Shown one piece after another: positions 30,063 to 31,930 of a stretch of 58,635 nt of DNA. The DNA lies in the NCBI GenBank assembly GCA_903898215.1, contig CAIUEQ010000126.1:1-58635 (forward strand), written 5' to 3'. Made by a program: the position numbers and the translations under genes. The notes below the pieces were generated by a model, which saw nothing but the letters and a program-made list of their open reading frames with translations, ran no database searches and was not told the origin of the DNA. The DNA comes from an uncultured Bacteroidota bacterium. Lineage in GTDB: Bacteria; Bacteroidota; Bacteroidia; UKL13-3. Position 1 is the first letter of the stretch. Each line of letters opens with the position of its first letter.

Positions 30063-30434
30063 CTAGGATAAATATAGAAATGACTGAGGTGGAAATAAAT
30101 TGTAATCTTTACGGATACACTTTGGTATTCGGTAAAGTTTTGTGTTTTTAATTTTTATAGCAAATCCGAGTTCTTTATCCCCGAAATATTCAAAGAAAAA
30201 ATCTTCTGAAATACCAGAATATTTTTTTGTCTTCTTCCAAAGTGTAACAAGATCATGTGTTATAATTTGATCAATTTCAAATTCTCCAATAATCTTTTGA
30301 ACTGGTGAAGAAGAGTATACAACAATTTTTTTTATATCAGGATTCTTAAAGATAGCTCTACGAAACTCATATTTCTTTGTGCCATCAAAGATCTTGTTAG
30401 CATATTCGGGTTTGATTGATAAGATTACTTTCAT
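30063..30434 (-). CDS. Stand-alone ASCH domain protein (COG4933-like)
   Basis: 123 aa. ILSIKPEYANKIFDGTKKYEFRR ... KIVVYSSSPVQKIIGEFEI ... GFAIKIKNTKLYRIP ... PPQSFLYL matches the small ASCH/PUA-like family as I recall it. Its start codon overlaps the upstream gene's stop in an ATGA at 30431-30434. Confidence 0.7.
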   Translation of the reverse strand: MKVILSIKPEYANKIFDGTKKYEFRRAIFKNPDIKKIVVYSSSPVQKIIGEFEIDQIITHDLVTLWKKTKKYSGISEDFFFEYFGDKELGFAIKIKNTKLYRIPKCIRKDYNLFPPQSFLYLS

Positions 30435-31930
30435 ATTCCAGACAAACTTATAAGTTTTTTAAGTGATTCCATTTCCATTTTATTTATTGTTCTGATAGCA
30501 TCCATATTAGAGAGTACTCCTTTGTCTAACATATCTTTCAAATGAGTTCTTTTTACAAAAGAGAACGCATAAAGGAAGTTGATAACAAATGGTCTATTAT
30601 TTGGTTTTCTTTCCCAATATTCTTTTAGTTCAACTTCTGTTAAAACAGTTCTTTTACGACAAATTTGAATTAATTTTTCAAGAGAATTTATATTGTTAAT
30701 AATATTTTCTACTATACCAATAGTCGTTGCAACTCCTGTATAAATTTTAGGTGCTCTATCTCCGCTTCTATAAAAAACAATAATATCACCAGATTTTAAA
30801 TCTCTATTAAAAGAATGAGAGATATATGATTTACTAATTGCATTTCTGTGCGGTTCGTTTTCTATAAAATCAGTAGGTGATTCCGTTCTTAAAATTGAAT
30901 CGGGAAATAATTCAGTGTGATATTCAGGACGTATAGGGATAATAAAAACATTAGCGTCTTCCGATAGCTTAGGGAAAGTTGTTTTCGGATTGGCTCTATC
31001 TGCTTTTTTGTTAAAGTCACGAGTATATACTTTCTCAATACCTGATGATGATGTTTTTTTTCCATGATATATAAAACCAAAATCTTCAAGCAAAGAAATC
31101 AGACGAAGTTGTTCTGGACTTCGGTCAAAAATTGTAACATAAATTTCGTCAACCTTAAATAGCCTTGCATTATCAAAAATAATTTTTAAAAAACGTTCGC
31201 CAAGTTTTATTCCATTGCTTGAAACTTTAAACGTACCAATTTTTAATCTCTTTTTTGGAGTAAATGTTGGAATTATGTTTTGATAATTTTCTTTTTCGTC
31301 CTCTTTTTTAATAAAAAGAAATGCGGATAATATTCCGTTATCATAACAGGTGTATGCAGGTTCATCAGACTTCTTATTAAACCATTTATCAAAGCCGTCA
31401 TAGTTAGAACGGAAACTATCAAAAAATGGATCATTTAAATTTATGTTTCCAAAATATTCTTTCTTAACAGCTAAAACTTTATAGTCAAATAAATCAGGGT
31501 TCTCAGCCCTTATTTTTTCAAGAAAACTATCTATTCGAAAAACTCTATCACTTATACCAAGCATTGCTGCTTTGGTGTGAATTTTTTTGTCTTCCGAAAT
31601 AAGTATATCAACTCGGTCACAGAAAACTTCATTAATTAGTTTTGTATCATCAAGGTCGTTAGGAACAGTATCAATTTTATCACTAACTTGTTTTACTTTT
31701 TCATTAAGGGGGGCTTCGGTTTTTAAGACATGATAATTTGCAAGTTTGACTTGCATTACTTTAGCATTATCTGAATTGATGTTTCTGTTAAGCTCATCAA
31801 CAGTTAGAGGATGAATACATTTTGTATAATGAAGTTTATCCAACCAATTAAATAATATTCCAATGTCTTGGTTAAGAATTCGACTGGCTTCTCTGTGAAT
31901 AATAATGTTGGTGTCGAGTAAAATTTTCAT
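30431..31930 (-). CDS. Three-domain protein: N-terminal PIN nuclease, central GNAT-like domain, C-terminal ASCH-like domain
   Basis: 499 aa.
- PIN: ILLDTNIIIH (D6), HPLTVDELNR (E46), NDLDDTKLI (D94/D95), ILISEDKKIHTKA (D114).
- Central region: DPFFDSFRSNYDGFDKWF ... KIGTFKVSSNGIKLGERFLKIIFDNA ... LISLLEDFGF resembles a GNAT beta4-alpha3 acetyl-CoA site.
- C-terminus: IIPIRPEYHTELF ... GDIIVFYRSGDRAPKIYTGVATTIGIVENI ... PFVINFLYAFSFVKRTHL parallels the downstream ASCH protein.

The ORF itself is confident; the domain calls were made by eye only. Confidence 0.6.
   Translation of the reverse strand: MKILLDTNIIIHREASRILNQDIGILFNWLDKLHYTKCIHPLTVDELNRNINSDNAKVMQVKLANYHVLKTEAPLNEKVKQVSDKIDTVPNDLDDTKLINEVFCDRVDILISEDKKIHTKAAMLGISDRVFRIDSFLEKIRAENPDLFDYKVLAVKKEYFGNINLNDPFFDSFRSNYDGFDKWFNKKSDEPAYTCYDNGILSAFLFIKKEDEKENYQNIIPTFTPKKRLKIGTFKVSSNGIKLGERFLKIIFDNARLFKVDEIYVTIFDRSPEQLRLISLLEDFGFIYHGKKTSSSGIEKVYTRDFNKKADRANPKTTFPKLSEDANVFIIPIRPEYHTELFPDSILRTESPTDFIENEPHRNAISKSYISHSFNRDLKSGDIIVFYRSGDRAPKIYTGVATTIGIVENIINNINSLEKLIQICRKRTVLTEVELKEYWERKPNNRPFVINFLYAFSFVKRTHLKDMLDKGVLSNMDAIRTINKMEMESLKKLISLSGI

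Follow-up and report, generated by a model that had tools for sequence, protein, structure and literature searches.

Proteins in which a GNAT acyltransferase domain is fused to a C-terminal EVE barrel, often behind an N-terminal PIN domain, form a major EVE protein class in the survey of Bell et al. 2020 (BMC Biol 18:159, PMC7641849), which refers the first description of the architecture to Iyer et al. 2013. Nearly all GNAT-EVE operons in that survey encode an ASCH protein, and an AAA_17 ATPase is frequent; the PIN-bearing form is linked with type I restriction-modification and with CRISPR, the PIN-less form is found in prophages, and no GNAT-EVE module had been characterised as of 2020 (PMC7641849). 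A gene pair of this kind lies in a 58,635-nucleotide stretch of DNA (hereafter the window) that makes up contig CAIUEQ010000126.1 of assembly GCA_903898215.1, from an uncultured Bacteroidota bacterium. One gene encodes a 499-residue PIN-GNAT-EVE protein and the other, which overlaps its 3′ end, encodes a 123-residue stand-alone ASCH protein. The literature already describes and catalogues this architecture, and the window pair is a further member of an experimentally uncharacterised kind. With moderate confidence, it is read here as a horizontally acquired solo module: an RNA-directed toxin-antidote pair and a conflict module of the abortive-infection type.

Both genes belong to the PADLOC candidate family PDC-M11. 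The large protein matches PDC-M11A (PDLC04422, E 9e-211), with residues 1-498 aligned to positions 1-493 of a model of 501, and the small protein matches PDC-M11B (PDLC04425, E 1.3e-51); the two models are matched nearly end to end by genes that are adjacent and co-oriented. The parent catalogue of Payne et al. 2024 (bioRxiv 10.1101/2024.01.29.577857) gathers cassettes embedded within BREX (bacteriophage exclusion), DISARM (defence island system associated with restriction-modification) or type I restriction-modification loci, and its supplement carries the entry "Assign as candidate PDC-M11". Whereas the nominated copies are embedded in such loci, the window copy stands alone within a housekeeping operon. 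One preprint places PDC-M11 in an O157:H7 strain. Like the operons of Bell et al., the window pair has PIN and GNAT domains fused in that order to a C-terminal PUA-like barrel, and an ASCH gene in the operon, although its barrel matches ASCH best by structure and Pfam EVE weakly. Those operons often have an AAA_17 ATPase and type I restriction-modification nearby, and the window copy has neither. An earlier reading made from the letters of the window (the sequence-only reading) had not recognised this architecture among named systems, a claim that falls in view of Bell et al. 2020, PADLOC PDC-M11 and the GevT/GevA annotation described below; its suggestion of a toxin-immunity or defence cassette, on the other hand, agrees with the published computational predictions.

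Relatives with a toxin and antitoxin annotation are carried by lambdoid Escherichia coli phages, in which tblastn against phage records turned up the PIN-less form. In PhiR47_2 (PV340567.1; L164:3225-5411), the two genes bear the names "GevT toxin" and "GevA antitoxin"; they follow cI immediately and in the same orientation, a position that in lambda is that of rexAB, a classic slot for exclusion genes. GevT and GevA match PDC-M11A and PDC-M11B, and the two ASCH partners match the same PADLOC sub-model. The window ASCH protein shares 48% identity with GevA (E 4e-44), and residues 154-499 of the large protein, its GNAT-EVE part, share 37.6% with GevT. Gene order and overlapping genes are also shared; the difference is that GevT is without a PIN domain and its pair is prophage-borne after cI, whereas the large protein of the window has a PIN domain. 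Judged by sequence, the window pair is a PIN-bearing relative of GevT/GevA, a prophage locus that 275 of 5426 complete E. coli genomes carry. As no GevTA paper was found, the toxin/antitoxin polarity is taken from the database annotation, and the identity of the window toxin is inferred by analogy from the GenBank annotation of its homologues. The 499-residue protein is taken as the presumed effector because its homologue is labelled a toxin and because it joins two toxin-type catalytic domains with conserved residues.

The layout described in the sequence-only reading (both reading frames, the ATGA overlap and the two short spacers) can be read directly from the DNA. The gene junction runs GGA ATA TGA / ATG AAA GTA, with ATG AAA GTA out of frame with the large gene; 17 nucleotides separate the upstream arginase-fold gene from the large open reading frame (ORF), and 15 nucleotides lie between the small ORF and the downstream gene for a tetratricopeptide repeat (TPR) membrane protein. 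More than 5600 homologues were found for the large protein and both genes have thousands, so both ORFs are genuine genes and not chance reading frames.

Linkage of the two genes is strong across species. Relatives were scanned with one genome per species, which yielded at least 470, and locus counts were taken from the best 80; these are mostly from Bacteroidota, with some from Desulfobacterota, Chloroflexota, Ignavibacteria, Kiritimatiellota and others. In 64 of the 80 loci, the large gene is followed directly by an ASCH homologue, and in 6 more the homologue comes one gene later, a total of 70; among the loci without one, several stop at or shortly past the large gene. The linkage of the large and ASCH genes on which the sequence-only reading depended is therefore borne out in other species. 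The 4-nucleotide overlap is the commonest junction (42 of the 64 adjacent pairs). Directly upstream of the large gene, an AAA_17-type ATPase gene is found in 22 of the 80 loci (for example, L070:9385-9987); the window copy lacks it, so this ATPase is dispensable for keeping the pair. In 8 of the 80 loci, an ORF of about 311 residues stands between the PIN-GNAT-EVE and ASCH genes (for example, L015:1784-2743), with no Pfam or PADLOC match.

The remaining neighbours vary by locus. Recurring minorities are tyrosine integrases (5 loci), HsdM (4), HsdR (3) and DndC-like proteins (3), and a census of 148 nearest neighbours from 41 loci contained only 3-4 type I methylases. Restriction-modification or Dnd-like neighbours belong to a minority of loci, and the window has none.

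Beyond the 80 loci, an exhaustive profile search recovered 2287 clusters at 50% identity, 742 of them at E <= 1e-30, distributed over bacteria, archaea, plasmids and phages. Family lengths cluster at about 500, 350 and 620 residues, and 17 of the 150 best representatives reach at least 560. In some lineages, the long forms join the partners in one polypeptide: P0244 is a PIN-GNAT-EVE-ASCH protein whose C-terminal ASCH domain is 39% identical to the window ASCH protein, P0265, P0286 and P0298 have an N-terminal, more divergent domain of the ASCH/DUF3850 type, and P0324 is ASCH-GNAT-EVE. Homologues on rhizobial, haloarchaeal and other plasmids stand beside ASCH or HTH(-ASCH) (helix-turn-helix) genes, and one adjoins cas3''. 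A Sinorhizobium plasmid copy (L165:1233-7689; 30% identity) adjoins genes for a QueC-like 7-cyano-7-deazaguanine synthase, XRE regulators, an ATP-binding protein and IS110, and its ASCH gene is on the opposite strand; the QueC-like neighbour is a hint that the family may be connected with 7-deazaguanine modification of nucleic acids. Methanothermobacter phage psiM100 (AF301375.1 8233-9534) encodes a full PIN-GNAT-EVE homologue (ORFD) in the annotated "inserted fragment IFa".

The copy in the window has been gained recently. With the arginase-fold neighbour as bait, a metagenome contig (L084) was retrieved that is without the cassette; identity to the window is 98% for its epimerase, 99% for its arginase-fold protein and 97% for its TPR protein. 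By blastn, positions 1-8170 of this contig correspond to window positions 40108-31945 and positions 8180-15164 to window positions 30041-23057, at 96.4-96.7% identity, and 1903 bp of the window stand where the contig has 9 bp (8171-8179). The empty site of a relative whose flanks are about 96.5% identical shows the 1.9-kb cassette to be a recent and precise gain. Three further relatives (L085, L086 and L088, with arginase identities of 92%, 90% and 80%) are also empty. In the empty-site relatives, only 2-3 nucleotides lie between the arginase stop and the TTG start of the TPR gene, and in the window this start (TTG AAA TCC) has been swapped for an ATG CGT supplied by the insertion. Composition differs as well: GC content is 0.295 in the cassette and 0.325-0.335 in the flanks, and GC content at third codon positions (GC3) is 0.19 and 0.23 in the two cassette genes and 0.30-0.32 in their neighbours.

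No target-site duplication or conserved cassette ends were found, only an imperfect AT-rich 13-mer, and the flanks are unconserved between loci. There is no tRNA in the whole 58-kb window, and no integrase or transposase among the called genes about 10 kb either side or in the 25 listed of the 80 Pfam families matched by other window ORFs of at least 150 residues. The absence of integrase, transposase and tRNA that the sequence-only reading had remarked on thus holds for the window, yet the relatives reveal a recent insertion. Identical cassette-bearing contigs recur in several metagenome assemblies; the pair is polymorphic for presence and absence at strain level, and its distribution is patchy and mobile. 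The window has no AAA_17 homologue, no 311-residue accessory ORF, no second cassette copy and no restriction-modification genes, and the rest of it consists of housekeeping genes.

Features at the PIN-GNAT-EVE/ASCH locus, in window coordinates
Feature	Coordinates	Strand	Basis
PIN-GNAT-EVE gene, 499 aa, PADLOC PDC-M11A type, presumed effector/toxin	30431..31930	-	ORF and PADLOC
Stand-alone ASCH gene, 123 aa, PADLOC PDC-M11B type, presumed antidote	30063..30434	-	Pfam ASCH, PADLOC, ZmASCH homology
PIN (VapC-like) domain, aa 1-145, predicted RNase	31496..31930	-	PIN_3, AlphaFold (AF2) domain model, Foldseek, invariant acidic residues
GNAT-fold acyltransferase domain, ~aa 150-320	30971..31483	-	Foldseek; Pfam GNAT on distant homologues
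PUA-like beta-barrel, EVE/ASCH clade, ~aa 321-499	30434..30970	-	Foldseek match to ZmASCH; weak Pfam EVE
ATGA stop/start overlap, translational coupling	30431..30434	-	Sequence; same 4-nt overlap elsewhere
Inserted cassette, 1903 bp, both spacers and new TPR-gene start included	30042..31944	.	blastn against the empty-site contig L084

The N-terminal domain of the large protein is matched by Pfam PIN_3 at a sub-threshold score (E 7.8e-4), although the whole 115-position model is covered. Among 79 family members from different species, 53 match PIN_3 (best E 1e-6), 9 match PIN_12 and 8 match PIN_4. A first full-length AlphaFold model had a predicted local distance difference test (pLDDT) score of 76 with low confidence in residues 1-70, and PIN was absent among its top 50 Foldseek matches. 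Residues 1-150 were therefore remodelled alone, from an alignment made more diverse by a subfamily that is 20-29% identical, and the PIN fold was resolved in this way (AF2, pLDDT 82.5, predicted template modelling score 0.78). The resulting model resembles VapC15 (PDB 4chg; Foldseek E 2.6e-4, template modelling (TM) scores 0.67/0.74), and further matches are VapC11 and other VapC toxins, FitB, the RNase P HARP, Nmd4, Utp24 and SMG6. In both subfamilies, the one of 20-29% identity included, D6, D92, D95 and D114 never vary, and E46 is invariant within the closer family. A predicted PIN domain with an acidic active-site set is thus confirmed by modelling. In the tetrad proposed from sequence (D6, E46, D94/95 and D114), D6, E46, D95 and D114 are indeed conserved, and the adjustment required is that D94 is not, the conserved pair being D92 and D95.

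Residues from about 150 to 320 of the large protein superimpose on the GNAT acetyltransferases 8osp, Naa50 and Naa60 (Foldseek E about 1e-5, probability 1.0, TM to target about 0.6). Within the window protein's own subfamily of 79 members there is no direct Pfam GNAT match; full-length alpha-proteobacterial homologues of about 30% identity, however, bear PF00583, PF13508 and PF13673, and the GNAT-like region described from sequence proves to have a GNAT fold. The loop between strand 4 and helix 3 is S237-G244 and motif B is LLEDFGF, and G240, E245, R246, G285 and F286 are invariant in the region. No specific sequence similarity of the large protein to TacT or AtaT was seen. As the family profile found no match among PDB sequences, the assignments of the GNAT domain and of the barrel that follows it are drawn from predicted structure and transitive homology.

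The last 180 residues form a predicted PUA-like barrel, in keeping with the PUA-like/ASCH-like module of the sequence-only reading, and the best solved match is ZmASCH (PDB 5y6b_D; Foldseek TM 0.76). Pfam EVE matches weakly (E 0.015 for the window protein; 7 of 79 members, best E 2.4e-4), and whereas this type of barrel was classed as EVE by Bell et al. 2020 (PMC7641849), the window barrel matches ASCH best by structure. It is without the ASCH octapeptide GxKxxExR, and Y387 is invariant. An I-[KR]-P-E-Y motif opens both the barrel and the small ASCH protein. The idea that the barrel is a duplicate of its ASCH partner was not upheld: neither BLASTP nor hhalign detected sequence similarity between the two.

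The small protein scores above the Pfam ASCH threshold (24.9 bits versus 21.2) and is homologous to ZmASCH (5GUS), with E 3.5e-11 for the sequence alone and 1.2e-17 as a 70-sequence profile, which settles its identity as the ASCH protein first suggested. ZmASCH itself matches PDC-M11B (E 9e-28), and among close homologues of the small protein it alone has been characterised biochemically. It is a Mg-dependent RNase that acts on single-stranded RNA and whose Tyr47, Gln127 and Ser128 line the RNA cleft; mutation of Tyr47 or Ser128 lowers nucleic-acid binding, and Y47F also lowers RNA cleavage (Kim et al. 2017, PDB 5GUQ/5GUS). The residues that align with these three in the window protein are Y40, Q117 and S118. 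In 70 orthologues, the octapeptide residues G18, K20, E23 and R25 are invariant together with Y40 and Q117, and S118 is found in at least 90%.

K20 and E23 match the Lys/Glu dyad of the Thermus protein TthASCH, which is essential for its removal of N4-acetylcytidine (ac4C) from tRNA, and 19 ASCH proteins including ZmASCH strip ac4C from tRNA in vitro (Statkeviciute et al. 2026 preprint). In the classes defined in that preprint, the octapeptide of the window ASCH protein is of the GKER type, which is invariant, and not of the GK[T/S]R type of the YqfB-type ac4C amidohydrolases. The window ASCH protein thus resembles ZmASCH and the ASCH tRNA ac4C deacetylases in homology, GKER-type octapeptide and cleft residues; it differs in that ZmASCH is an orphan without a GNAT-EVE neighbour, whereas the window protein, whose activity is predicted, is paired with a PIN-GNAT-EVE gene. 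ZmASCH was considered as a member of a GNAT-EVE operon and rejected, since the 375-residue protein encoded upstream is unrelated and has no PADLOC match.

Two classical toxin-antitoxin groups invite comparison. With VapBC, the window pair shares a VapC-like PIN fold, an acidic site and a small coupled partner gene; in VapBC, however, a stand-alone PIN toxin follows an upstream gene for the DNA-binding VapB, whereas in the window the PIN domain is fused to GNAT and EVE and the ASCH partner lies downstream. With TacAT, AtaRT and ItaRT, whose toxins acetylate aminoacyl-tRNA, it shares the GNAT fold and a small translationally coupled partner gene, but the antitoxins of those systems are ribbon-helix-helix or DUF1778 proteins and the partner here is a downstream, enzyme-like ASCH protein. 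From both groups, the window differs in having PIN, GNAT and a reader barrel in one polypeptide.

A mechanism that would fit the toxin-antidote reading can be outlined. The EVE-type barrel of the effector would dock on a nucleotide that is probably modified and that most likely belongs to tRNA or another RNA of translation, and the GNAT domain would move an acyl group from acyl-CoA onto an amino group of the docked substrate. The PIN domain would cut RNA, and the PIN and GNAT activities would jointly halt translation. Coupling through ATGA would set a fixed ratio of effector to ASCH protein, with the latter keeping the effector harmless in normal cells. The antidote would most likely hydrolyse the acyl mark by means of its Lys/Glu dyad, occupy the same RNA, or do both, and the effector would gain the upper hand once a phage infects or the cassette is lost. 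The evidence supports an ASCH protein that acts together with the large protein and probably in opposition to it, and an antidote that acts on the substrate, rather than one that just binds, is favoured because catalytic-type residues of the ASCH protein are invariant and because of the activities reported for ASCH proteins. That the target is RNA, that it receives an acyl mark and that the module defends against phage is inferred. As a hypothesis, an acetylate-and-erase mechanism is plausible, and the earlier idea of acetylation-based attack and reversal gains some plausibility from the 19 ASCH proteins that remove tRNA ac4C in vitro.

A stricter form of this mechanism is a self-contained circuit in which GNAT would write an ac4C-like mark on tRNA or phage RNA, EVE would read it, PIN would cut the marked RNA and ASCH would erase the mark on self RNA. 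So specific a scheme is considered unlikely. If true, it would mark the first use of reversible RNA base acetylation in an immune or toxin system and would give the newly reported ASCH ac4C deacetylase activity a natural context.

Several points weigh against the toxin-antidote reading. PDC-M11 is one of 145 explicitly untested phage-defence candidates (Payne et al. 2024), and the literature search found no experiment on any PIN-GNAT-EVE plus ASCH family member, nothing on GevT, GevA, GevTA or PhiR47, and nothing on GNAT-EVE after 2020. The closest GNAT structures are protein N-terminal acetyltransferases and not tRNA-acetylating toxins. In vivo, ZmASCH did not remove ac4C to a significant extent (Statkeviciute et al. 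2026 preprint), and at its locus in Zymomonas mobilis (L167:4825-6447) the ZmASCH gene follows that of an unrelated 375-residue protein. Bell et al. 2020 favour DNA binding for the ASCH partner (PMC7641849). Restriction-modification or Dnd-like nearest neighbours occur in about 10% of related loci in the 41-locus census, and the window copy is outside any defence island, the sole other PADLOC match in 58 kb being very probably a housekeeping RecQ helicase. Covalent fusion of antidote to toxin, as in the family members with a fused ASCH domain, is also unusual for classical type II toxin-antitoxin pairs.

One rival is a system akin to restriction-modification that acts on DNA, in which GNAT acylates a DNA base (for example, an aminated or hypermodified one), EVE and ASCH read modified DNA, and the nuclease restricts wrongly marked DNA or transcripts. 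Acetylation of DNA bases was proposed by Iyer et al. 2013, as relayed by Bell et al. 2020, who argue from HTH-ASCH and HsdS-ASCH fusions and from the linkage with type I restriction-modification that ASCH binds modified DNA (PMC7641849). HsdM, HsdR, HsdS and DndC-like genes adjoin some loci, and the rhizobial plasmid copy adjoins the QueC-like 7-deazaguanine synthase gene. Such a system is nevertheless considered rather improbable here: PIN domains are overwhelmingly RNases, and this one finds its top matches by structure in VapC toxins, RNase P (HARP) and PIN proteins that process rRNA; those relatives of the ASCH partner that have been characterised act on RNA; and in most loci, the window included, the two-gene unit comes without methylase or helicase.

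A purely selfish addiction module, in which a toxin-antidote pair persists because its loss kills the cell and in which phage defence plays no part, would account for a solo cassette in a housekeeping operon without defence neighbours, and it is in keeping with the tight coupling, the plasmid copies, the recent gain and a GenBank label that says toxin/antitoxin and not defence. That account seems a poor bet given that the pair lies repeatedly within or beside restriction-modification, BREX, DISARM and CRISPR systems, that the E. coli prophage copy occupies what in lambda is the rexAB exclusion slot, directly downstream of cI and co-oriented with it, and that the prophage locus recurs among complete E. 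coli genomes at the frequency given above. A role in housekeeping RNA modification, with GNAT-EVE writing an acetyl mark on tRNA or rRNA, ASCH erasing it and PIN taking part in RNA processing, is very improbable indeed. The genes share their strand with metabolic and envelope genes, lie 15-17 nucleotides from either neighbour and are apparently co-transcribed, ASCH proteins erase tRNA ac4C in vitro, and family members are called "RimI-like" or "FCF1" by some annotation pipelines; against this, the cassette is absent from the relative whose flanks are about 96.5% identical and from three further relatives, its GC3 looks foreign, its genomic context differs in nearly every species, and plasmids and phages carry copies.

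The outcome is in the main deflationary, the architecture having been described and catalogued before. Added here are structural support for the three domains, counts of linkage and coupling, the ASCH fusions and the empty-site comparison. The module is widespread and joins three nucleic-acid-directed domains, with predicted activities, to an ASCH partner, and the literature search found no published mechanism for any family member. Should the GNAT domain and the ASCH protein write and erase an RNA acyl mark, ASCH deacetylase activity would be tied to a biological conflict system. With the empty-site relative (contig Ga0194047_10000141), the window offers a natural pair of cassette-bearing and empty-site strains, together with a minimal, solo, two-gene version of the module.

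Among the other genes of the window, the RecQ helicase (52430-54619, minus strand) resembles E. coli RecQ (1oyw, E 6.5e-133). A single window ORF is matched by the PADLOC models for DpdF and PsyrT (E down to 1e-206); it is very probably this helicase, as both models describe RecQ-like helicases, and the same false positive is to be expected from automated defence annotation of the host genome.

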